From: Bacteroidales bacterium
GTDB lineage: Bacteria; Bacteroidota; Bacteroidia; Bacteroidales; VadinHA17
DNA: 64,000 nucleotides
NCBI GenBank assembly: GCA_041740815.1
Contig: JBGSLG010000157.1
Span: 20,015-84,014 of the forward strand
Direction of reading: 5' to 3'
Part shown: positions 1 through 9,055 of the stretch, one piece after another
Layout: the number at the start of each line of letters is the position of its first letter
How positions within the stretch are numbered: the first letter of the stretch is position 1
Notes under the pieces: model-generated
Databases searched by the model: none
Seen by the model: only the letters and a program-made list of their open reading frames with translations
What the model was told of the DNA's origin: nothing
Position numbers and translations under genes: made by a program

Positions 1-1
1 G

Positions 2-850
2 AATCAGACCTTATATTCAATCTCGAAGGCCTATAAAGTTACTATTCCCGAGATTGAGCGCGAGAATGTGATTCCTTCAAGCGGCATACAGGCCGGACAG
101 GTGCTCCGGATCCCGTCGCGTGAAGACATGGCTGGCTCAGGTTCGCCTGCGCGTGCCGTGGCTCAGCCTGCATCACGGACTTCACAGCCTGTCGCCTCCG
201 GTGCAGGACCGTCATACGATCCGGCTACAGGTATACGCATCTCCGGGGAGAAGATAGTGTACTCCGGTAAGAACTATTATATGCATGAGGTGCTAAAGGG
301 GCAGACACTATATTCTATCGCGAAGGCTTACAGGGTAACGATCCTGGATATAGACCGTGAGAATATGATACCCGCCGGAGGCATACAGGCCGGGCAGGTC
401 CTCAGGATACCGGTGGCATCATCAATGATAGCACAGGAAGAGGTGGATGCGCCTCCGGCAAATGTCCAGACCAGACCTGCTGCCGCCGGCACCGGCGACC
501 GTCAGGCTTCAACTCCGGGAACGGGCAAACCGGCCCAACCAGCAGTGGAGGCCAGGCAAATGCCTTCAACACAATCGCAGCCGCCGACAGTGCAACAGTC
601 AACCGATGCCGTGAAGCAGACGGAGGAGGTGGCACAGGCCCCTGCAGCAAAATCTAAGACCGAGGCAAAAAAGACACCGCTTGTGAAGAAGAAGATCCAT
701 AAGGTGCAGAAGGGGGAGTCTCTTGCCGACATAGCAAAAATATATGACATCACCGTTCAGGAGCTGAAGCAGGCAAACAAGGGAGTGATCTTTGCCATGC
801 CTGACATGCGCCTCGTGATACCTTCGCCGGAAGAATCAGAGGAGAAATAG
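2..850 (+). CDS. LysM-repeat peptidoglycan-binding protein (5' end outside window)
   Basis: The frame is open from base 2 (NQTLYSISKAYKVTIPEIERENVIPSSGIQAGQVLRIP). There are three LysM-like modules, two ending QAGQVLRIP and one reading LADIAKIYDITVQELKQAN, separated by P/A/Q/T-rich linkers. The track start at 68 is only the first in-window GTG. Confidence 0.8.
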   Translation, partial: NQTLYSISKAYKVTIPEIERENVIPSSGIQAGQVLRIPSREDMAGSGSPARAVAQPASRTSQPVASGAGPSYDPATGIRISGEKIVYSGKNYYMHEVLKGQTLYSIAKAYRVTILDIDRENMIPAGGIQAGQVLRIPVASSMIAQEEVDAPPANVQTRPAAAGTGDRQASTPGTGKPAQPAVEARQMPSTQSQPPTVQQSTDAVKQTEEVAQAPAAKSKTEAKKTPLVKKKIHKVQKGESLADIAKIYDITVQELKQANKGVIFAMPDMRLVIPSPEESEEK

Positions 851-1124
851 CCCTGAAAGCTCATGATATTACAGGGGTATGGTAAAAATATTGCCAGTCC
901 CTTTTTGCTTTTATTCCGGCAGCCTTTCCGGTTTTTATTCTATTAAGTTTTAATTATTATCATTTTACTGCCATAATTTAGGCGAAAACCTATTAAGAGA
1001 TGGGTATGTAGCATCTTAACCCCATAACTTTCATCAGGCAGATGCATTAAGAAATTGTTTCTTTCCCATAAATTTACTATTTTTAGTTCAATTAACCCAT
1101 GTCAAACCATAAATACCCATTGAT

Positions 1125-1979
1125 ATGAAAACTATCAAAGCATTAATCATTATCATGGTGGTACTTAGCCTTTCCGGCTGCAAGTACAAGACTATGTCGG
1201 AACAGCTCGAAGCTGAAAAACAGGATCTGATCACTCAGCTTGCAAAGAGCGAGTCAACGATGAAGGAGTACCTTTCCGTAATGAACAACGCTGATGCAAA
1301 GCTCAGTGCGCTGCTCGGGCAGGAGGGCGCTGCAGGACAGCAGGCGGCAGCCGGGGATCTGCCGGCAAGGCTGGATCAGGCAATAGCAAATATAACCTCC
1401 TTGATGGAGGATACGGAGCAGAAATACCAGTCTGCGAGAAACCGGTATTACAGTGCCAGCTCAAAGGTGAAGGTGCTTGAAGATGAGGTGTCGAAGCTCA
1501 AGGTTCTGGCTCAACAGAAAGACAGCCTGATCAATGTTATGAAAGAGAAGAGCGCGGCCCTTGTTGCCACCATCGAAGAACAGACCGCTAACATTGAGAC
1601 CCTGACCGGAAATATCAGTGAGATGGAAGGAACCATCAGTGAGATGACCGGTAACCTGAACACTGTCTGGTATACTGCAGGTACGAAGGACGAGCTTATA
1701 AGCAGGAATGTCATTACCAAAACCGGCGGGTTTCTCGGCTTCCTGGGAAGGGTGATGGTGCTGTCGCCGTCGCTTAGCAGCAGCAGTTTGGAGAAAATGG
1801 ACATACGTGAGAAGACAACCTTCACCCTCAAGGGTACCCTCGATAAAATGGAGTTTATTACACTTCATCCTTCGGGCAGCTATCAGCTGACTACCGTTGA
1901 TGCCGAAACAGTCACTCTGACTGTGACAGACCCGGCCAGGTTCTGGGAAGGGTCGAGATTCCTGGTCATCGTTTTGTGA
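1125..1979 (+). CDS. Lipoprotein with central coiled-coil region, function unknown
   Basis: Signal peptide plus lipobox (MKTIKALIIIMVVLSLSGC). A long E/K/L/Q-rich heptad-like stretch is followed by a beta-rich C-terminal third. The antisense ORFs at 1461-1868 are shadows. Confidence 0.6.
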   Translation: MKTIKALIIIMVVLSLSGCKYKTMSEQLEAEKQDLITQLAKSESTMKEYLSVMNNADAKLSALLGQEGAAGQQAAAGDLPARLDQAIANITSLMEDTEQKYQSARNRYYSASSKVKVLEDEVSKLKVLAQQKDSLINVMKEKSAALVATIEEQTANIETLTGNISEMEGTISEMTGNLNTVWYTAGTKDELISRNVITKTGGFLGFLGRVMVLSPSLSSSSLEKMDIREKTTFTLKGTLDKMEFITLHPSGSYQLTTVDAETVTLTVTDPARFWEGSRFLVIVL

Positions 1980-2066
1980 CCACTTGTAATGATGCTGACT
2001 TTGTAGTCAGGACGTCATCCGGGATCATGAAAGACCATTGGTCGAGAGCAGTTTGATGGATTGATT

Positions 2067-2471
2067 TTATTTTCCTCTTTCCCAGGTCAATACTATCACC
2101 AGGCCGACAATTGCCATGACGACTGTTGTCACCGCGATGTCAACAATCATTGCCCCGGCGTTAAGGTACGTAGTGCTCATCGACCAGTATGAGAATGCGA
2201 TACCTGATCCGTACAGTAATCCGAACAGTGCTCCAAACTTCAGGCCGTCGATGATGCTTCTGGCTTTTGCCCAGTTCAGGATAAGGGTCAGCAGAAGCGC
2301 CATCACCAGGTTTGAAAGGATGATGGCCCACCATATCATTTCGCCATCAGTGCGGCTGGTACATTGATTCATGTTAGCTAAAAAGAAATCCATGAGCAGG
2401 ATTCCCCATACAAGCCACCCCAGGAGAAAATAAGCAATTCCCCCGAAAATGGTTCCTCTGAGAATTTTCAT
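2067..2471 (-). CDS. Small integral membrane protein (about 4 TM helices), function unknown
   Basis: 134 aa, made almost entirely of hydrophobic helices (GGIAYFLLGWLVWGILL, WWAIILSNLVMALLLTLIL, FGALFGLLYGSGIAF, IVDIAVTTVVMAIVGLVIVL). No catalytic motif recognised. Confidence 0.55.
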   Translation of the reverse strand: MKILRGTIFGGIAYFLLGWLVWGILLMDFFLANMNQCTSRTDGEMIWWAIILSNLVMALLLTLILNWAKARSIIDGLKFGALFGLLYGSGIAFSYWSMSTTYLNAGAMIVDIAVTTVVMAIVGLVIVLTWERGK

Positions 2472-2579
2472 TGGTCTTCAGTTTTAAGTTAAAACGCTAA
2501 TGCAATTTAAAATATTAATTCAACCTTATAATGTCATTTGGAAGGTTATGATGGTTCCAATGTCAATCCCTGAAGTGAA

Positions 2580-2927
2580 TTAGTTCTTGTCAGCCAGTGT
2601 TGTTGAGCCGTTCAATACATCGGTAATTAAAATTTCCTGCAGTCTCTGCGGTTCCTCGAACATCGGACTGTGAGCCGAATTCTCAAAAGTGTAGAACCCT
2701 TTTACAGGAGCCTCTACCTTCTTCAGGTAGTCTTTTGCCAGATCCTTATTGACTGTCAGATCATATCTCCCACTCAGGAAATAGACCGGCATGTCGAGGC
2801 CGGTGACAGTGGCCGGTATATCGGAGCTGATGACCTGACTTCTCAACCCTGACCTGGATACAAAGGAGAACTTCGCCTTCCAGATTTTGATTTTTTCTTT
2901 TAGAGTATAGGCCCTGCAGGTCCAGCT
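2580..2927 (-). pseudogene. C-terminal remnant of an alpha/beta-fold hydrolase (proline-iminopeptidase-like), 5'-truncated
   Basis: The C-terminal sequence MPVYFLSGRYDLTVNKDLAKDYLKKVEAPVKGFYTFENSAHSPMFEEPQRLQEIL includes the catalytic-His block (NSAHSP) of alpha/beta hydrolases. My hand translation keeps this frame open upstream only to a TGA at 2928-2930. No nucleophile-elbow (GXSXG) region is present. AT-rich DNA begins immediately beyond the break. Confidence 0.6.
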
Positions 2928-3111
2928 TCATATTTTATAGTTTCAATGAAATGAATTTCCTGACTGTTCCCATTCCCTGCAGACAAGCCCCCCCCCGGAA
3001 AATCAAAATTAAACTAAAAACCCGAAATCTGACTGCAAAGAAATCCTGAGAATTATGAAGGAAGGAAAAGAATAATTTCCATTTTTGGGTATTAATTAAA
3101 ACCTGATAACA

Positions 3112-3750
3112 ATGCAAAGTGCAGAAAGTCTGAAAAGGAGAATAGAAATGGAAGAAAGGAATAGTTTGATTAGAGAATCGCCTTCCGAATCCACAGCGAT
3201 TAAAGTTGGGGACGATTCTAATTCAAGTGAGATCCTTGTCTTTACTTCCCTGTGTAATGTATACAAAGTTCAGAAAAAGGAACTTATGGACAAGTTTCAG
3301 GCACTGCAGAAAATTGATTTCGAACCAGGAGAAAAACCGATCTATCTGACCGGAGAAAAGAGATATAAAGGTTTTCTGATTGTGGCATTTGAAAATGGCA
3401 AAATCGGGAAAATTTCTATGGAAAGTTTTCAAACCGAGTACACAAGGAAAAAACTCAGGAATGCATTCAATGGCGAATCGCGATTGATCTTTATTGAACT
3501 CATTGAACATGATATTAATCTGGTTACAATGAGCAGCATTAAAAAGGTGGTTCTGTTTAACACTTCTCAGATCAATGCGGTAGAAAGCAGGTCGACAAAA
3601 GGTGTTCAGGTTATGAAACCGAAGGATGGCAGTGTAATGATAAAAGTTATTCGGCCGGAAAATACAAAACTAACTGATCCTGAATACTACCGTAAGAGTG
3701 AATCTCTTAATGCAATCGGATTTTACTTGAAACCAGGTGATGAAATCTAA
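3112..3750 (+). CDS. GyrA/ParC C-terminal-domain-like (beta-pinwheel) protein, probably a fragment or stand-alone domain
   Basis: Repeated blade-like segments (KGFLIVAFENGKIGKISMESF; STKGVQVMKPKDGSVMIKV) resemble gyrase/topo IV subunit A C-terminal blades. There is no N-terminal cleavage-religation domain. The gene is AT-rich. The family call is from memory only. Confidence 0.4.
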   Translation: MQSAESLKRRIEMEERNSLIRESPSESTAIKVGDDSNSSEILVFTSLCNVYKVQKKELMDKFQALQKIDFEPGEKPIYLTGEKRYKGFLIVAFENGKIGKISMESFQTEYTRKKLRNAFNGESRLIFIELIEHDINLVTMSSIKKVVLFNTSQINAVESRSTKGVQVMKPKDGSVMIKVIRPENTKLTDPEYYRKSESLNAIGFYLKPGDEI

Positions 3751-3763
3751 TTCCTGGCGCACG

Positions 3764-3874
3764 GCGGACTTCCAGGGGCCGGCTGAAAGAGAAAAAGCCT
3801 TTCATTCGCTCCGCTCATTCCAGCCTTTATTTTTTCTTATGCTCCCGAAAGCAAGCTTTCATCGCACAGAAAAA
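3764..3874. repeat. Direct repeat copy R1 (111 bp), left bracket of the hyp cassette
   Basis: GCGGACTTCCAGGGGCCGGCTGAAAGAGAAAAAGCCT...GCAAGCTTTCATCGCACAGAAAAA recurs at 8330-8441. My hand alignment shows 4 substitutions and one extra A. Confidence 0.9.
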
Positions 3875-4323
3875 TTATAGCACTATCAAAGATTAAAACA
3901 AAACATTAAAATTATTAAGAGGTGCTAGTGTTGGGTTTTGAATATGTGAATCATGTAAACTCTCTTGGAAATATTGTAACAATTTCCTTCTCAAATTGGA
4001 AGAGCTTTACAAACAGATATGCAGAAAAAGCATCTTTAACAATTACAGCCGCTTTTAATGTTGATGAGATATTTATATCAGCAGAAGATCGGGGTAACCT
4101 GTCTTATCCTGCCGGAATTGCGGGTTATATGAAGGTTTTGGCGTGGTTTCTTTAACTAAACTTTTTTGTGCCAAACTACGCCTGCACAAGAACCATTAGT
4201 GACAATGGTAAGATGATGCTGTAAAGGCCAATAACCCGTTAAAGGACTAAAGATTGGCCGAAACAAAAGCCAATAAAAGTGGGATTGCCGAAAATATGTA
4301 CTAAGAAATAAAAAGAGCATAAA

Positions 4324-4995
4324 ATGGATCGCTATAAAATTCTTGAAATAAAGAAAAGTGTCTTCGAAAACAACGATAAACAAGCGAATATTCTTCGCGA
4401 CGAATTAAAAAAGGACAAGACCTTTTTACTCAATCTGATGTCATCACCGGGTTCGGGTAAAACAACAACTGTTTTAAGAACCATTGAAACCTTAAAGGAT
4501 GAAATGAGCATCGGCATTTTAGAGGCTGATATTGATTCTGATGTGGATGCGTTCACAGTTTCTAAAACCGGCGTTAAAGTTATTCAGTTGCATACAGGTG
4601 GAATGTGCCATTTAGATGCTGATATGACCAGGCAGGGACTCGCTGGTCTGGGAACCAATGGAATCGACCTGGTAATACTTGAGAACGTCGGCAATTTAGT
4701 ATGCCCCGCTGAATTTGATACCGGAGCGGTGAAAAATGTCATGATCTTAAGTGTGCCGGAGGGAGATGACAAACCTCTCAAATATCCTTTAATGTTTTCA
4801 ATCGCTGATGTTTTATTAATTAACAAGATGGATTCAATAGGTTTCTTTGAGTTTGATTTAGAGGCTGTTAAAGTACGAGTTAAAAAGCTAAACCCAAACA
4901 TCAAGATAATTCCAATTACTGCTAAAACAGGTGAAGGAATTGAAGAGTGGGCTAATTGGCTACGTACTGAAGTTAAAAATTGGAATGAATATTAA
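4324..4995 (+). CDS. hypB: Hydrogenase/nickel-enzyme maturation GTPase HypB
   Basis: P-loop SPGSGKTT, the diagnostic ENVGNLVCPAEFD block and the NKMD G4 motif. 223 aa. AT-rich codon usage. Confidence 0.9.
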   Translation: MDRYKILEIKKSVFENNDKQANILRDELKKDKTFLLNLMSSPGSGKTTTVLRTIETLKDEMSIGILEADIDSDVDAFTVSKTGVKVIQLHTGGMCHLDADMTRQGLAGLGTNGIDLVILENVGNLVCPAEFDTGAVKNVMILSVPEGDDKPLKYPLMFSIADVLLINKMDSIGFFEFDLEAVKVRVKKLNPNIKIIPITAKTGEGIEEWANWLRTEVKNWNEY

Positions 4996-5023
4996 GACAT
5001 TTTAAAAATTGGGAGACACAAAA

Positions 5024-7705
5024 ATGGCAGAACAATTAAGAGAATGTATTGTGGATTTAGCAAGGCTGATTCGAGGCAGTAAGAGATTAACGATCACTAA
5101 AGATATGCCTGACTATTATGTTTTAGAGAAATTAGTCACTGATGAAATGGCAGAAGTAGTTCTTGGAATGAAAAAAAGAAGAACTTATGTAAATCCAGCA
5201 CAAGTTGCAAAAAATATTGGCAAAACAAAAGAACACTGTTCTGAAGTTCTGGAGAAATGTCTTGATGTTGGAATAGTAGAATGTAGAGAAGTTGAAGGAG
5301 GATATGAGTACAGTGTGCCAATTTATGTTCCTGGAATTTTCGAAATAATGATTCTTAATAAAGAACAGGCTGAAAGCCATCCGGAAATAGCAAGAGCTTT
5401 TGAAGAATATACCAGAACCACAATTGCTCCAATGGTTGACAAAATACCTTTAGGAAGAGGTGCACTTAGAGTTATTCCTGTAGAATCTGCTATAAGTGGA
5501 GAATCTAGAAAAGCTAACTATGAAGAGATTAGCTATTGGCTTAATAAATATGATGGACAAATTGCTGTTGGCGCTTGCCAATGCAGAAGAAGTCGCAGAA
5601 TTATGGGTGAAGGCTGTGGCGACTTAGAAGATGAAAAATGTATCATATTAGGTGATTTGGCTGATGCTGGTGTTAGAACCAATAAATTGCGTCGTGCAAC
5701 CAAAGGCGAAGCATTGGAGATAATATTGAAGGCAGAGAGAGAAGGTTGTGTTCATCAGGTTACAAATATGGACGGTAAAGACAAGATTTTTGCTATCTGT
5801 AATTGTAATATCAATGTATGTTTTGCCTTAAGAACTTCACAATACTTCAATACACCTAATATGAGTAAATCAAATTATGTGGCTGAAGTAAATCCAGATA
5901 ATTGCGTAGCCTGTGGTGCATGTGTAGAAAAGTGTCCCTCCAATGCTATTAGACTTGGAGAAAAACTTTGTACAAAAACACCTATTAAAGTTGCAGAAAT
6001 GGAATTGCCGGATGATCATAGGTGGAGCAAAGAAAGATATAACCCTGATTTTAGAAATAATCGCAAATTGGTTGTGCCAGAAACTGGCACATCTCCTTGT
6101 ATTACTGAATGTCCGGCACATCTTGCTATTCAAGGATATATAAGATTTGCCAGCCAGGGTAAATATAGAGAAGCATTAGAAGTAATAAAAAGAGTAAATC
6201 CATTGCCAGCAGTTTGTGGAAGAATTTGCCCTCATAAATGTGAAGATGCGTGTACTCGTGGGTTTATAGATAATCCTGTAGCAATAGATGATATTAAGCG
6301 TTTTATTGCAGATAAAGATATGGAATCTGAATCAAGATTTGTTCCTGAAAAAATGCATGCTTATGGAAAGAAAATTGCCATTATAGGTTCTGGTCCTGCA
6401 GGTATATCTTGTGCATATTATTTGGCTATTGATGGATATAAGGTTACTGTATTCGAAAAACAAGAAAAACTTGGTGGGATGCTAACTTTAGGAATACCAG
6501 CATTTAGACTTGAAAAGGACGTAATTGTATCAGAAATAGATGTGCTTCGTGAACTTGGAGTAGAATTTAAGACAGGAATTGAAGTAGGTAAGGATGTTAC
6601 AATACCTGAATTAAGAAAAGAGGGTTTTAAAGGATTTTATCTTGCAATTGGTGCTCAAGGCGGAAGAAAACTTGGCTTGGAAGGTGAAGATGCTAAAGGT
6701 GTTATTACAGGTGTTGATTTCTTGAGAAATGTGGCTTTGGATAATGCAGATAAACTAAATGGTAATGTAGTAGTAATAGGTGGCGGTAATGTTGCTATTG
6801 ATGTTGCAAGAACTGCAACAAGAACTGGCGGAAAAACAGTAAATATATATTGTTTGGAAGCAAGAAAAGAAATGCCAGCTTTAGATGAAGAAATTGAAGA
6901 AGCAGAATCTGAAAATATTACAATCAATAATGGATATGGTCCTAATAAAATTGTTATTGAAAATGGCAAAGTTACTGGAGTAGAATTCAAAAAATGTTTA
7001 TCAGTATTTAATGATGACGGTAAGTTTTCACCAAAATATGACGATAATAATATCATAACTGTGCCAGCAGACCATGTATTGCTTTCCGTTGGACAATCAA
7101 TTGAATGGGGTAATTTAATAGACGGAACTGATGTGAAATTAAACAGAAATAAAACTGTAGTTGCTGATGATTTTACTTATTTAACTGATGAGAAAGATAT
7201 TTTTGTTGGTGGTGATTGCTTTACGGGACCAAAATTTGCCATCGATGCAATAGCTAGTGGCAAACAAGGTGCAATTTCTCTTCATCGTTCAGTTTGGGAA
7301 GGACAAAGTTTGACTATTGGTCGCCCATACAATGGATTTGCAGAAATTGACAAAGATAATTTGGTTTTCAAAGATTATGATACAACCAAAAGACAAAGAC
7401 CATTGCATATTAAAGAAAATGATGGAACATTTAAAGATACCAGGGCAACTTTGACAGAAGAGCAATTAAAGAAAGAAACTTTAAGATGTTTGGGCTGCGG
7501 TGTTGCTGTTATTGATGAAGGTAAATGCCTGGGTTGTGGTGTTTGTACAGTAATGTGTAAATTTGATGCAGTTAGTCTTAAAAAGATAAACAATGTTGGA
7601 CAAGTCGCTTATGAAGATATACCAAAAGAAGTATTAAAGAATATTCCAAAAAGAGAAGTTAAAATTGCAATAAGAAAAATTAAAGAAACATTTAGTAAAT
7701 ATTGA
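5024..7705 (+). CDS. Multidomain Fe-S flavoprotein: Cys-rich N-terminal domain + 4Fe-4S ferredoxin + GltD-like NAD(P)H/FAD oxidoreductase + C-terminal 2x[4Fe-4S]
   Basis: CVACGACVEKCP is a ferredoxin motif. NPLPAVCGRICPHKCEDACTRG is the GltD/PreT-type Fe-S signature. IAIIGSGPAGISCAYYLAIDGYKVTVFEKQEKLGGML is a dinucleotide fold, and a second Rossmann motif reads VVVIGGGNVAID. The C-terminus has CLGCGVA...CLGCGVCTVMC. I prefer the ATG at 5024, which sits 7 nt after GGGAGA (5011-5016), over the track TTG at 5009. Confidence 0.8.
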   Translation: MAEQLRECIVDLARLIRGSKRLTITKDMPDYYVLEKLVTDEMAEVVLGMKKRRTYVNPAQVAKNIGKTKEHCSEVLEKCLDVGIVECREVEGGYEYSVPIYVPGIFEIMILNKEQAESHPEIARAFEEYTRTTIAPMVDKIPLGRGALRVIPVESAISGESRKANYEEISYWLNKYDGQIAVGACQCRRSRRIMGEGCGDLEDEKCIILGDLADAGVRTNKLRRATKGEALEIILKAEREGCVHQVTNMDGKDKIFAICNCNINVCFALRTSQYFNTPNMSKSNYVAEVNPDNCVACGACVEKCPSNAIRLGEKLCTKTPIKVAEMELPDDHRWSKERYNPDFRNNRKLVVPETGTSPCITECPAHLAIQGYIRFASQGKYREALEVIKRVNPLPAVCGRICPHKCEDACTRGFIDNPVAIDDIKRFIADKDMESESRFVPEKMHAYGKKIAIIGSGPAGISCAYYLAIDGYKVTVFEKQEKLGGMLTLGIPAFRLEKDVIVSEIDVLRELGVEFKTGIEVGKDVTIPELRKEGFKGFYLAIGAQGGRKLGLEGEDAKGVITGVDFLRNVALDNADKLNGNVVVIGGGNVAIDVARTATRTGGKTVNIYCLEARKEMPALDEEIEEAESENITINNGYGPNKIVIENGKVTGVEFKKCLSVFNDDGKFSPKYDDNNIITVPADHVLLSVGQSIEWGNLIDGTDVKLNRNKTVVADDFTYLTDEKDIFVGGDCFTGPKFAIDAIASGKQGAISLHRSVWEGQSLTIGRPYNGFAEIDKDNLVFKDYDTTKRQRPLHIKENDGTFKDTRATLTEEQLKKETLRCLGCGVAVIDEGKCLGCGVCTVMCKFDAVSLKKINNVGQVAYEDIPKEVLKNIPKREVKIAIRKIKETFSKY

Positions 7706-7715
7706 TAATAAATCA

Positions 7716-8075
7716 ATGCACGAATTAAGTTTATTAGTAGAAGTTGTAAAAATTGTAGAAGATTTAGTAGTTAAAAATAAAATTCAAAAACTAAGAGCTA
7801 TAGTTTTGCAAGTTGGAGAAGTTTCTTCTGTGATTCCTTCTTTCATGGAAGAGTATTTTCCTGTTGTGACTTTGGATAAACCATTTTTTAAGGATACTCA
7901 ACTAGAAATTGAAATGATACCTGGTGAGGCAAAATGTGTGGATTGTGGCGAAGTTTTTAATATCTTAAAAACAGACGGTTATTGCTCAAACTGCCATAGT
8001 TTTGAGAAAGAGGTGCTTCGCGGAAGAGAATTTTTAATCAAAGAATTAGTTGTGTATGATGAAGAACAAAATTAG
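7716..8075 (+). CDS. hypA: Nickel metallochaperone HypA
   Basis: N-terminal MHELSL nickel-binding motif and a zinc site CVDCG...CSNCHS. 119 aa. Starts 10 nt after the preceding gene. Confidence 0.9.
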   Translation: MHELSLLVEVVKIVEDLVVKNKIQKLRAIVLQVGEVSSVIPSFMEEYFPVVTLDKPFFKDTQLEIEMIPGEAKCVDCGEVFNILKTDGYCSNCHSFEKEVLRGREFLIKELVVYDEEQN

Positions 8076-8174
8076 TGATTTTCAAATATTGGAAAACTAC
8101 TTTTTGTACTACTAATAACAATGGCTTCGTAAAGATCTGATTTACAAGGCCATTTTATTTTAATTGCCGGGGGA

Positions 8175-8329
8175 GAAGATTGCCGCAAAGCGGGGCTTTG
8201 CGACAATCTTCCAGGGGGCAGATGACATTGATTGAGAAGATTGCGCTCCGCCAACTGGCGGAGCGCGGACTTCCAGGGGCCGGCTGAAAGGGAAATAGAA
8301 GATTGCTCGCCCTCCCGTCGGTCGGCCTC
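8175..8329. repeat. Three tandem ~62-bp GC-rich units, each GAAGATTGC - variable GC hairpin - CTTCCAGGGG
   Basis: Units start at 8175, 8236 and 8298. Unit 1 folds as GAAGATTGcCGCAAAGC-ggg-GCTTTGCGaCAATCTTC. Unit 2 contains the perfect 10-bp hairpin GCGCTCCGCC-aact-GGCGGAGCGC. Units 2 and 3 end with the first ~30 nt of the R1/R2 repeat. Confidence 0.85.
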
Positions 8330-8441
8330 GCGGACTTCCAGGGGCCGGCTGAAAGAGAAAAAGCCTGTCATTCGCTTCGCTCATTCCAGGTCTTTATTTT
8401 TTCTTATGCTCCCGAAAGCAAGCTTTCATCGCACAGAAAAA
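8330..8441. repeat. Direct repeat copy R2 (112 bp), right bracket of the hyp cassette
   Basis: Near-identical to 3764-3874. Lies 47 bp from the 3' end of tRNA-Pro. Confidence 0.9.
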
Positions 8442-8479
8442 ATAAAGCCCTTCCCCGCCAGCTGGCGGGGAAAGGCTTT
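8437..8479 (-). terminator. Rho-independent terminator downstream of tRNA-Pro (hairpin usable from both strands)
   Basis: AAAGCCCTTCCCCGCCAG/CTGGCGGGGAAAGGCTTT is an 18-bp palindrome with one mismatch. It is flanked by an A-run (8437-8442) and a T-run (8477-8481). Confidence 0.75.
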
Positions 8480-8487
8480 TTCTCTTG

Positions 8488-8560
8488 TCGGGGTGAGAAG
8501 ACTCGAACTTCCGGCCCCTACGTCCCGAACGTAGTACGCTACCAACTGCGCTACACCCCG
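8488..8560 (-). tRNA. tRNA-Pro (anticodon CGG)
   Basis: The minus strand reads CGGGGTGTAGCGCAGTTGGTAGCGTACTACGTTCGGGACGTAGGGGCCGGAAGTTCGAGTCTTCTCACCCCGA. The 7-bp acceptor stem is perfect. The anticodon stem CTACG/CGTAG encloses loop TTCGGGA. The T-loop is TTCGAGT. CCA is not encoded. Confidence 0.9.
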
Positions 8561-8668
8561 ATGCAGCCTGCTAATCCCGCCAAAAGGCGGAGAGGGAGGC
8601 TGATTCCTGAATAAATTCAGGTTCGCAAAAGTAATAATTTTTTATTCCTGACAGAACTTTTTTGCTCT

Positions 8669-9055
8669 TTAAAGCGTCAGCTCTGCAATCTTCCGGTGCA
8701 GGTCGTTGCTGCTCACCGGCTTGGGAAGATAATCAGTACAGCCCGAATCAAGCGCCCTCTTCTTGTCATCAGGGAATGCATAGGCCGTCACAGCTACAAT
8801 AGGCAGCTTCTCAAACGCAGTCTCCGTCCGCAACCGACGGGTGAGCGAAAGACCGTCCTCATCTCCCTTGAGAGAGATATCCATCAACACCAGGTCAAAC
8901 ACCCTGTCGTGAAGCAAATCCCATGCCTCCCGGGCCGATGATGCCACGGCAGTGTCATACAGTCCCGACAACAGCTTGGTGAAATAAAGCTGGCTGTGCG
9001 GATCATCTTCCACTATCAGGATGGCCATTCGTTTCGACGGTGAAGGTTCTTTCAT
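8669..9055 (-). CDS. Stand-alone CheY-like response-regulator receiver domain
   Basis: ILIVEDDP...DLVLMDISL...PIVAVTAYA...DYLPKP gives the acidic pocket, phospho-accepting Asp, conserved T and K. There is no output domain. The start overlaps the upstream stop as ATGA. Confidence 0.85.
   Translation of the reverse strand: MKEPSPSKRMAILIVEDDPHSQLYFTKLLSGLYDTAVASSAREAWDLLHDRVFDLVLMDISLKGDEDGLSLTRRLRTETAFEKLPIVAVTAYAFPDDKKRALDSGCTDYLPKPVSSNDLHRKIAELTL

Follow-up and report, generated by a model that had tools for sequence, protein, structure and literature searches.

The closest described analogue of the locus considered here is found at the ssrA gene of Dehalococcoides, where genomic islands lie in tandem, have 20-bp repeats of the ssrA 3' end at their borders, involve T-loop insertion and carry low-GC reductase operons (PMC3146451). 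Some of these islands lack integration genes and have been proposed to be cis-mobilizable, and their content varies between strains (PMC3146451). Here, an AT-rich block is analysed in a 64,000-nt stretch of a Bacteroidales genome (the window; GenBank assembly GCA_041740815.1, contig JBGSLG010000157.1, positions 20,015 to 84,014). The block lies beside a tRNA-Pro(CGG) gene and holds the cassette hypB-X-hypA, which encodes two predicted nickel chaperones and a large predicted oxidoreductase, X. Taken in aggregate, comparison with related loci suggests that this block is probably a layered islet at a tRNA-Pro(CGG) integration hotspot in an environmental Bacteroidales lineage, built by repeated integration and decay. 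The likeness to the ssrA islands includes: the tandem arrangement downstream of a structured-RNA gene; short repeats of the 3' end of that gene; the T-loop region; and low-GC cargo with an anaerobic reductase. The differences are: the target, here tRNA-Pro in Bacteroidales; a core of 13-15 nt rather than 20 bp; much smaller islets, of 0.2-5 kb; a conserved hairpin arm after each core copy, which is not described for the ssrA islands; and the recombinase, which is a CcrB-like serine recombinase (DsiB) at ssrA and, in the one integrase seen at the tRNA-Pro site, a tyrosine recombinase.

A comparable history underlies the scheme for cis-mobilizable elements (CIMEs) of the streptococcal ICESt1 family, in which integration at a tRNA end, decay and further integration into a retained att site give tandem arrays (PMC5704250). 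This accretion of integrative conjugative and mobilizable elements (ICE-IME accretion) fits the window as a history of integration, decay and accretion, and integration and transfer genes are lost in both cases. By definition a CIME retains attL and attR, whereas the window cassette keeps no more than a single core copy, to its right, and its left junction lies in a truncated terminator; CIMEs also belong to another phylum, and no conjugation genes are in view in the window. Integron arrays likewise contain cassettes separated by imperfect hairpins with a conserved base and a variable top. In contrast to integrons, this locus lacks IntI and shows no attC R''/R' consensus; its hairpin units are tRNA-derived and stay at the hotspot, and cargo orientation is mixed. 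Within Bacteroides, elements of the NBU1/NBU2 type carry tyrosine integrases with Arm-DNA-binding and SAM-like N-terminal domains and use a core of ~14 bp at a tRNA 3' end; they target tRNA-Leu or tRNA-Ser and carry mobilisation genes, whereas the target here is tRNA-Pro and neither mob genes nor an oriT were seen, with no search aimed at them. The locus is best seen as one of a known kind, a decayed tRNA-anchored islet with a known but uncharacterised IsrA-like plus HypAB module, and the grammar of its hairpin units is the least ordinary part.

The cargo has its own described counterpart, the isr operon of Acetobacterium wieringae ISORED-2. IsrA is a 901-aa FAD/Fe-S oxidoreductase induced by isoprene and encoded with two hypA genes, one hypB gene and one ferredoxin gene (Kronen et al. 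2023, PMC10134865). Of 988 IsrA homologs, 73% have hypA and 56% have hypB in their neighbourhood, where genes for TetR and DUF5692 proteins also recur; the proposed nickel acceptor is a Cys6 site with two CxC motifs (C180/182, C254/256) within an unannotated N-terminal 270 residues (PMC10134865). The family is mostly found in Firmicutes, with few Bacteroidetes members, and a link to isoprene exists for only some clade 9 homologs (PMC10134865). Reduction of unactivated C=C bonds, such as those of isoprene, is the proposed but not proven function of IsrA-type modules.

In the window, X (5024-7705, + strand) encodes 893 residues. The Pfam domains are PF14691 (Fer4_20), PF07992 (Pyr_redox_2) and PF00037 (Fer4), the last at residues 293-315 and 833-859. 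CxC motifs occur at 190-192 (CQC) and 264-266 (CNC), with additional cysteines at 203, 211 and 271. Relatives in the PDB are the NfnB-like modules of 9bov, 8oh5, 9n5u and 5jca, which cover only residues about 356-827. The resemblance to the isr operon therefore extends to a length of ~900 aa, an unannotated N-terminal region of 270-290 aa with two CxC motifs, the succession of Fer4, Fer4_20, FAD/NAD(P) domain and C-terminal Fer4, and the adjacent hypA and hypB; the window differs in its order hypB-X-hypA, its single hypA and the absence of an extra ferredoxin gene. The upstream gene (4324-4995, +) encodes a HypB-type nickel GTPase chaperone (TIGR00073, 244 bits against a cut-off of 121; Pfam cobW also matched). 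The downstream gene (7716-8075, +) encodes a HypA-type nickel metallochaperone by Pfam PF01155 (E 2e-27; 95.7 bits against a cut-off of 28.9), at a score below the stricter TIGR00100 equivalog cut-off (73.9 versus 88.1 bits). Length, domain order, CxC motifs and neighbours, set against the published description, make X a putative IsrA-family ("clade 9") reductase with dedicated nickel chaperones. PADLOC assigns no defence family to the cassette proteins. Comparison with the nearest relatives of X gives 18 synonymous and 14 non-synonymous codon differences from L081 and 141 and 69, respectively, from L082, and the cassette genes are intact and under purifying selection. As had been noted from the sequence at the outset, X also has a canonical Shine-Dalgarno site, GGGAGA (5011-5016), 7 nt ahead of its true ATG (5024), unlike the host genes: even a 4-mer of the Shine-Dalgarno core is present in only three of 30 long host open reading frames (ORFs). 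The transferred genes are intact, then, and still have a ribosome-binding site rarely used by the recipient lineage.

Composition sets the block apart. The sole stretch of the window with a GC content below 0.42 is 2500-8500; GC is 0.28-0.40 within it versus 0.50-0.57 in the flanks, and the AT-rich run is unbroken from about 2930 to 8200. GC at third codon positions (GC3) is 0.18-0.36 in the cassette genes versus 0.58-0.67 in host genes, and the tetranucleotide distance of X is 0.048 versus 0.0153 +/- 0.0022 for host segments. The original prediction, which read positions 2928-8441 as one AT-rich insertion of Firmicutes-like DNA that had truncated a hydrolase gene, was sound in this contrast of composition. 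It also correctly placed the onset of AT-rich DNA and the break of the hydrolase frame near 2928 (homology starts at about 2925), and the right end near the 3' end of tRNA-Pro(CGG), which is 45 nt from 8441. Its proposal of horizontal acquisition of hypB-X-hypA at a tRNA-proximal hotspot is supported by both composition and empty sites in relatives; its boundaries for the insertion are not.

The boundaries can be drawn from related species. The flanking DUF362 gene, used as a query, yielded 50 species-level loci from uncultured Bacteroidales. They carry the labels Rikenellaceae, Rikenella or Bacteroidales, protein identity is 80-90%, and loci L001-L052 represent this set of related species. 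The window segment 3900-8090 has no match in any of the 52. The left 0.95 kb (3032-3884) is resident across the clade, because more than 25 cassette-free relatives carry it at the locus. In ten of these (L002, L003, L006, L008, L018, L027, L031, L036, L041 and L043), a small gene here called ORF212 lies directly beside an array of hairpin units and tRNA-Pro with no cassette, and the non-coding array between ORF212 and the tRNA matches window 8097-8486. These are empty sites for the cassette. The recent insertion is therefore limited to about 3885-8096 (4.2 kb), comprising a pseudo-DUF5692 gene, hypB, X and hypA. Composition alone had merged at least three layers into one block; more than one step is needed, as had been suspected, and an AT-rich block beside a tRNA gene is not safely read as a single event.

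The junctions are genuine and not assembly artefacts, because independent contigs reproduce them. L105 and L106, two Logan contigs that come from other samples, match window 1-3122 and 1-3158, respectively, at 99.7% identity and cross the 2925-3111 junction. An independent JGI contig (L081) carries ORF212, the left repeat copy, pseudo-DUF5692, hypB, X, hypA, segment S and the first hairpin unit at 97.8% identity, with left and right cassette junctions identical to those of the window. Its outer flanks are unlike those of the window: a different gene lies at the left, and other AT-rich cargo follows the first unit. L081 is the only other locus with the cassette at this site (98%). The earlier concern that the repeats might have produced a chimeric assembly is removed by these contigs. 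L105 (1-3120) and L106 (1-3156) both terminate within the 5' end of ORF212, which suggests either that the hotspot varies within the population or that assembly of its AT-rich part is poor.

The origin of the cassette can be followed through a small number of relatives. Protein relatives of X form a tight group at 83-98% identity, beyond which identity falls to 66% or less; the named matches are all Clostridia or other anaerobes. Two gene orders occur. In type A, TetR is followed by X-hypA-hypB, with TetR divergent; the three examples (L083, L084, an NCBI "Clostridia" metagenome-assembled genome, and L085) lie on low-GC contigs with Firmicutes-type neighbours, and their DNA is 79-85% identical to the window across X and hypA and only about 70% across hypB. 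In type B, the order is DUF5692-hypB-X-hypA, as in L082 (89% DNA identity) and L086 (86%), whose contigs are uniformly low in GC (0.34-0.36). The DNA homology of the window to both starts at 4233. L082 carries outer-membrane genes, including a patatin/Omp85 gene whose homologs are only Bacteroidales-named (Prolixibacteraceae, Paludibacter and others), and the X cassette is compositionally native in its low-GC Bacteroidales contig. The two orders are circular permutations of one another: X-hypA-hypB in the Clostridia type, and DUF5692-hypB-X-hypA in the Bacteroidales type, which includes the window, L081, L082 and L086.

Window positions 3885-4323 (+) hold the decayed 3' remnant of DUF5692, identified by tblastn with the DUF5692 proteins of L082 and L086. 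Within it, 4233-4298 encodes the last 21 codons of the gene, interrupted by a stop (NPLKD*RLAETKANKSGIAEN), and a 77-aa ORF at 3922-4155 has no family match. Because of the remnant at 4233-4298, the window cassette is best read as a type B segment cut inside DUF5692, and the immediate donor looks like a low-GC Bacteroidales. The Firmicutes origin that had been predicted does not hold for this immediate donor; a Clostridia connection lies one step further back. A putative nickel-dependent IsrA-type module may have crossed from one phylum to another, passing from Clostridia into low-GC Bacteroidales and then into a Bacteroidales of 51% GC, in a case that can be called clean and datable. This bears on the spread of a poorly understood isoprene/alkene-reductase family in anoxic habitats. 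In the related species of L039, an intact DUF5692 gene occupies this hotspot by itself, about 560-1500 nt from tRNA-Pro; it lies on the opposite strand and is not accompanied by hypB, X or hypA.

To the left of the cassette, the ORF212 module (3032-3750, +) consists of a conserved upstream region and a 212-aa protein (3112-3750). ORF212 is AT-rich in the window and in all relatives that carry it. The protein has no Pfam match and no PADLOC defence family; it matches phrog_28877 (E 1.8e-32), the GyrA C-terminal domain of PDB 1suu (E 1e-4) and NCBIfam gyrA/parC (E about 1e-7), and so resembles, on these matches, the C-terminal domain of topoisomerase II, GyrA or ParC. Its homologs are the extreme C-terminus of proteins of 700-1900 aa. 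Window 3032-3780 is found in more than 25 related loci at 79-95% DNA identity, and third-codon-position identity to relatives is 0.77-0.92 for ORF212 versus 0.42-0.67 (saturated) for core genes. ORF212 has therefore undergone recent exchange between species, with purifying selection kept. In L131 and L134, a unit and tail also occur upstream of ORF212, leaving it between units; ORF212 therefore behaves as a cassette as well. It is an earlier occupant that many species have in common, and as a small gene that is mobile or recombines it marks the hotspot. Its occurrence includes L002-L049, L111, L118, L125, L126, L131 and L134.

The repeats that bracket hypB-X-hypA were correctly recognised in the original prediction. 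The 111-bp copies at 3764-3874 and 8330-8441 align with 108 matches, 3 mismatches and 1 indel, and less pronounced similarity continues out to 3754-3884 and 8320-8451; a repeat 21-mer occurs in three copies in the window and in none of 100 shuffles. A partial copy that had been placed near 8265-8295 lies at 8255-8298, and a further degenerate one at 8208-8249. What the repeats are emerges from the relatives. In every one, the non-coding DNA between cargo and tRNA-Pro consists of one to three units, a tail of ~85 nt and a terminator palindrome that abuts the tRNA. The relatives' units are ~63 nt long and read GGGTGAGAAGA-TTGC-(variable hairpin)-GCGG-ACTTCC-AkGGGCCGGCTGAAAGAG; in the window, the form is a tRNA-Pro 3'-end-like GGGG(T)GAGAAGA, followed by TTGC, a variable hairpin, GCGG, ACTTCC and AGGGGCCGGCTGAAAG. 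The tRNA-Pro(CGG) gene (8487-8560, - strand) reads GTCGGGGTGAGAAGA-CTCGA-ACTTCC on the + strand, and the unit heads copy its 3' end. Its 3'-terminal 15 nt (GTCGGGGTGAGAAGA on the + strand) constitutes the att-type core, as does the 13-15-nt copy heading each hairpin unit. In L035, L011 and L130, the unit reads (terminator)-GTCGGGGTGAGAAGA-TTGC-hairpin-GCGG-ACTTCC; a unit of this type represents the acceptor strand and both T-stem strands of the tRNA, with a hairpin in place of the T-loop. In the same three loci, complete 15-nt core copies bound islets, and behind such a core the unit-tail-terminator module occurs as a tandem duplicate.

In the window, three tandem units of ~63 nt occupy 8168-8357, the first of which (8168-8232) is degenerate, followed by the tail and a bidirectional terminator palindrome (8358-8486). 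The right repeat copy, R, is unit 3 plus tail. The left copy, R' (3754-3884), is half a hairpin unit (about 3762-3791) plus tail, and it breaks off at the expected start of the terminator. R and R' have substitutions in common that are missing from relatives, and they are each other's closest relatives, which argues for duplication or gene conversion within this lineage. L081 retains a complete hairpin unit inside R', so the window has lost 66 nt by recombination between two units. The earlier view of the repeats as att-like or recombination scars holds in that they are related to recombination; it does not hold in that they were neither brought by nor made for the cassette, being native modules of the tRNA-Pro 3' flank shared by many species.

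The palindrome itself (8437-8486) has 25+25 nt with a perfect centre and is flanked by A and T runs; it lies directly 3' of tRNA-Pro as a bidirectional terminator closing the cargo side. Among relatives the palindrome comes in two sequence types, and L011 has both in its tandem modules. In L147, units lie beside tRNA-Pro(GGG) (7638-7714), and the module is thus not confined to the CGG isoacceptor or to the DUF362/response-regulator neighbourhood. A CRISPR-like reading of the ~63-nt repeats was rejected, as the "spacers" show conservation across species and are palindromes in their own right. An Rfam scan of 2800-8700 returned the tRNA only, the units match no described RNA family, and no attC-like match was found. 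A scan of viral contigs for the unit pattern gave 18 matches, about the number expected by chance, with one hairpin-like match in the coat gene of a single-stranded RNA phage.

The right edge of the cassette is formed by S (8097-8165), an AT-rich, terminator-like hairpin segment. S recurs in 11 loci, where it is preceded by hypA, AbiEii, Fic or ORF212, and wherever the reported flank reads in the right orientation it is followed by the core-like GGGGTGAGAAGA. In the window, a core-like CGGGG-GAGAAGA lies at 8168-8179, to the right of the cassette; degenerate copies head units 2 and 3, and the left boundary (3884/3885) has no copy.

The same site receives other cargo, and the block terminates 0-400 nt from the 3' end of tRNA-Pro(CGG). 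The cargo includes: a GH9-like protein (L007, L025, L029, L033); AbiEi/AbiEii toxin-antitoxin pairs (L004, L035, L037, L108, L114, L130); an M24 peptidase with DUF1214/1254 (L004); an AraC regulator (L028); Fic (L127, L128); a HipA-like pair (L131, L134); and DUF3800 (L117). Multi-cassette arrays occur in L004, L108 and L130. In seven loci (L108, L114, L127, L130, L111, L117, L128), the terminator and GTCGGGGTGAGAAGA are followed by unrelated AT-rich DNA with no tRNA body, and ARAGORN finds no tRNA on the three displaced-core contigs L108, L127 and L130. At least five different sequences follow the displaced core: one shared by L108, L114 and L127, and those of L130, L111, L117 and L128. The first gene beyond the core junction in L108 and L114 encodes a tyrosine integrase (Arm-DNA-bind_5, Phage_int_SAM_5, Phage_integrase); these are the only two elements behind displaced cores in which an integrase is found. 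Identity at the element junctions ends right after GAGAAGA, the same breakpoint as that of the units. Together, displaced cores, foreign DNA and integrase argue that elements integrate at the tRNA-Pro 3' end. In att terms, S, as well as tail plus terminator, behaves as a P arm and the hairpin unit as a P' arm, judging from their arrangement. Elements behind displaced cores also carry defence- or toxin-like genes: HATPase_c_3 in the element of L108 (5108-9742), DUF3800 in that of L117 (1077-3443) and Fic in that of L128 (2468-6038). A scan of viral contigs for an L108-type att junction gave no match.

These comparisons indicate a cassette that is foreign and recent and sits in a multi-species tRNA-Pro hotspot, repeats that derive from the tRNA 3' flank, and integrase-bearing elements that use the same core. 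The native scaffold consists of modules in which a tRNA 3'-end copy and a hairpin unit are followed by tail and terminator or by S, with species-specific accessory genes between modules. Horizontally acquired DNA beside a tRNA gene is ordinary; the added value lies in the cross-phylum reductase module and in a well-resolved hotspot architecture, documented over dozens of uncultured Bacteroidales species and about 90 loci. The recognisable grammar of the hotspot, in which core and hairpin arm are followed by cargo and then by S or a terminator, could guide searches of metagenomes for accessory and defence genes.

If the islet arose by repeated integration and decay, its history likely involves: arrival of pseudo-DUF5692-hypB-X-hypA as cargo of an element integrating by tyrosine-integrase recombination at the tRNA-Pro 3' core; a later deletion in which the integrase, the core and arm on the left, and the greater part of DUF5692 were lost; and passage of the islet between close lineages (the window and L081) by homologous recombination in conserved flanks such as ORF212 and the units. 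Entry as element cargo is suggested because the right end still reads cargo-S-core (8076-8179). The deletion would have fused the DUF5692 remnant to the tail of a neighbouring module, and this fusion may be why the cassette is bracketed by apparent 111-bp repeats.

Several observations weigh against this history. Site-specific entry of the hypB-X-hypA cargo is inferred, with no left core copy or P' arm left. No integrase is present in 2928-8441, as had been predicted for the block, and tblastn with the L108 integrase finds none in the 64-kb window or in other loci; a regular-expression search of the window and L001-L052 for the H.LRH pattern of tyrosine recombinases was also negative, although this pattern misses the Bacteroidetes-type integrase of L108. 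The donors (L082-L086) have neither units nor S, and the proposed history does not account for the entry of the cargo into an S-type element. Where 63-nt units follow one another with no intervening P arm, slippage is a better fit than serial integration. Moreover, hypB is more diverged than X and hypA against every relative: its third-position identity to L082 is 0.63 versus 0.81-0.83 for X and hypA, and its GC3 is 0.36 versus 0.18-0.22. By this divergence and composition the cassette itself is a mosaic. The final difficulty is that the covarying hairpin tops hint at a selected role, as terminator, RNA stabiliser or protein site, beyond that of scars. Covariation was assessed in 91 distinct units from the window, 52 genome loci (L002-L051 variants) and 41 metagenome loci (L107-L147). 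The base of the unit is invariant, with GAAG, an A:A mismatch and then T:G, T:G, G:C and C:G pairs (two T:G pairs in all), whereas the inner stem covaries: at positions 11-14, 78-93% of units are paired and three or four pair types occur. For positions 9-15 the paired fraction is 0.735, versus 0.43 +/- 0.02 when partners are permuted, a control that ignores relatedness. Folding energy is equal on both strands (-16.5 versus -16.8 kcal/mol).

The alternative that best survives is that foreign DNA entered by illegitimate recombination into a pre-existing tandem duplicate of the unit-tail module, with the repeats as copies of the tRNA flank made by slippage or unequal crossover; strong conservation of ORF212 and of the tRNA modules would then allow cargo to be swapped between species by homologous recombination. 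This is the less probable account, though one to be taken seriously: the positions of the cargo-to-unit junction vary among cargos; the left junction lies within a terminator and has no core; the donors have no units; the mutual closeness of R and R' fits intragenomic duplication or gene conversion; and ORF212 was clearly exchanged by recombination. What it leaves unexplained are the displaced 15-nt cores, with their unrelated elements and an integrase at the same breakpoint, and the occurrence of S and core after four unrelated cargos.

A more speculative proposal, which we regard as rather unlikely, is that units and S are the working att arms of small integrase-less cassettes (toxin-antitoxin, defence and metabolic), which would be inserted, stacked and exchanged at tRNA-Pro through an integrase acting in trans, with ORF212 and IsrA/HypAB among them. 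If true, this would constitute a chromosomal cassette platform in environmental Bacteroidales, analogous to integrons but unrelated to them. As a rival account of the locus as a whole, a tRNA-anchored platform of this integron- or CIME-like kind, with units and S as the recombination sites of cassettes moved in trans and hypB-X-hypA as one of them, is improbable. The invariant base of the units (GAAG-A-TTGC/GCGG-A-CTTC) with tops that covary across the 91 variants would suit it, as would the flanking of AbiE cassettes by units in six loci, and of Fic, GH9, ORF212 and others elsewhere, and the three multi-cassette arrays. However, the arrays have no linked recombinase of their own, junction positions vary, the cassette comes without units in the donors, there is no attC-like consensus, and cargo orientation is mixed. 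Refuted by these comparisons is the single 5.4-kb Firmicutes block (2928-8441) truncating the hydrolase, with the repeats as its own att scars or the product of a chimeric assembly: the AT-rich run is continuous from about 2930 to 8200 and the named best matches of X are Clostridia, but more than 25 cassette-free relatives share 3032-3884, the nearest copies with the same order and a DUF5692 neighbour are Bacteroidales, no relative has an intact hydrolase at the site, and every junction is reproduced by independent contigs.

The hydrolase fragment marks a second variable spot to the left of the islet. It is a 115-codon 3' fragment of an alpha/beta-hydrolase gene (2580-2925, - strand), in which homology begins abruptly at WTCRAYT (window about 2925) and only the C-terminal part is matched. 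An in-frame stop lies just upstream of WTCRAYT, beyond which nothing is recognisable, and the first 27 codons have no usable start. GC3 is host-like (0.59). The fragment is present in the same-species contigs L105 and L106 and has no counterpart in L001-L052. An intact hydrolase at the site was sought in the related loci and found in none of them; homologs in the database do not exceed 202 aa, and the search recovered no ancestral state. The DNA unique to the window on the hydrolase side spans about 2540-3031, including the species-unique junction DNA (2926-3031) between the hydrolase remnant and the ORF212 module; the homology of relatives resumes at 3032-3072. The fragment is thus a separate, strain-specific remnant in a variable spot between ORF212 and a DUF1761 gene, and not a gene cut by the hyp cassette, as had been proposed.

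Exact-protein look-ups for the DUF362 neighbour and an 898-aa ORF matched no record. Elsewhere in the window, a short intergenic stretch of low GC (0.37) lies at 801-1200, between a LysM-protein gene and a gene for a 284-aa coiled-coil protein.

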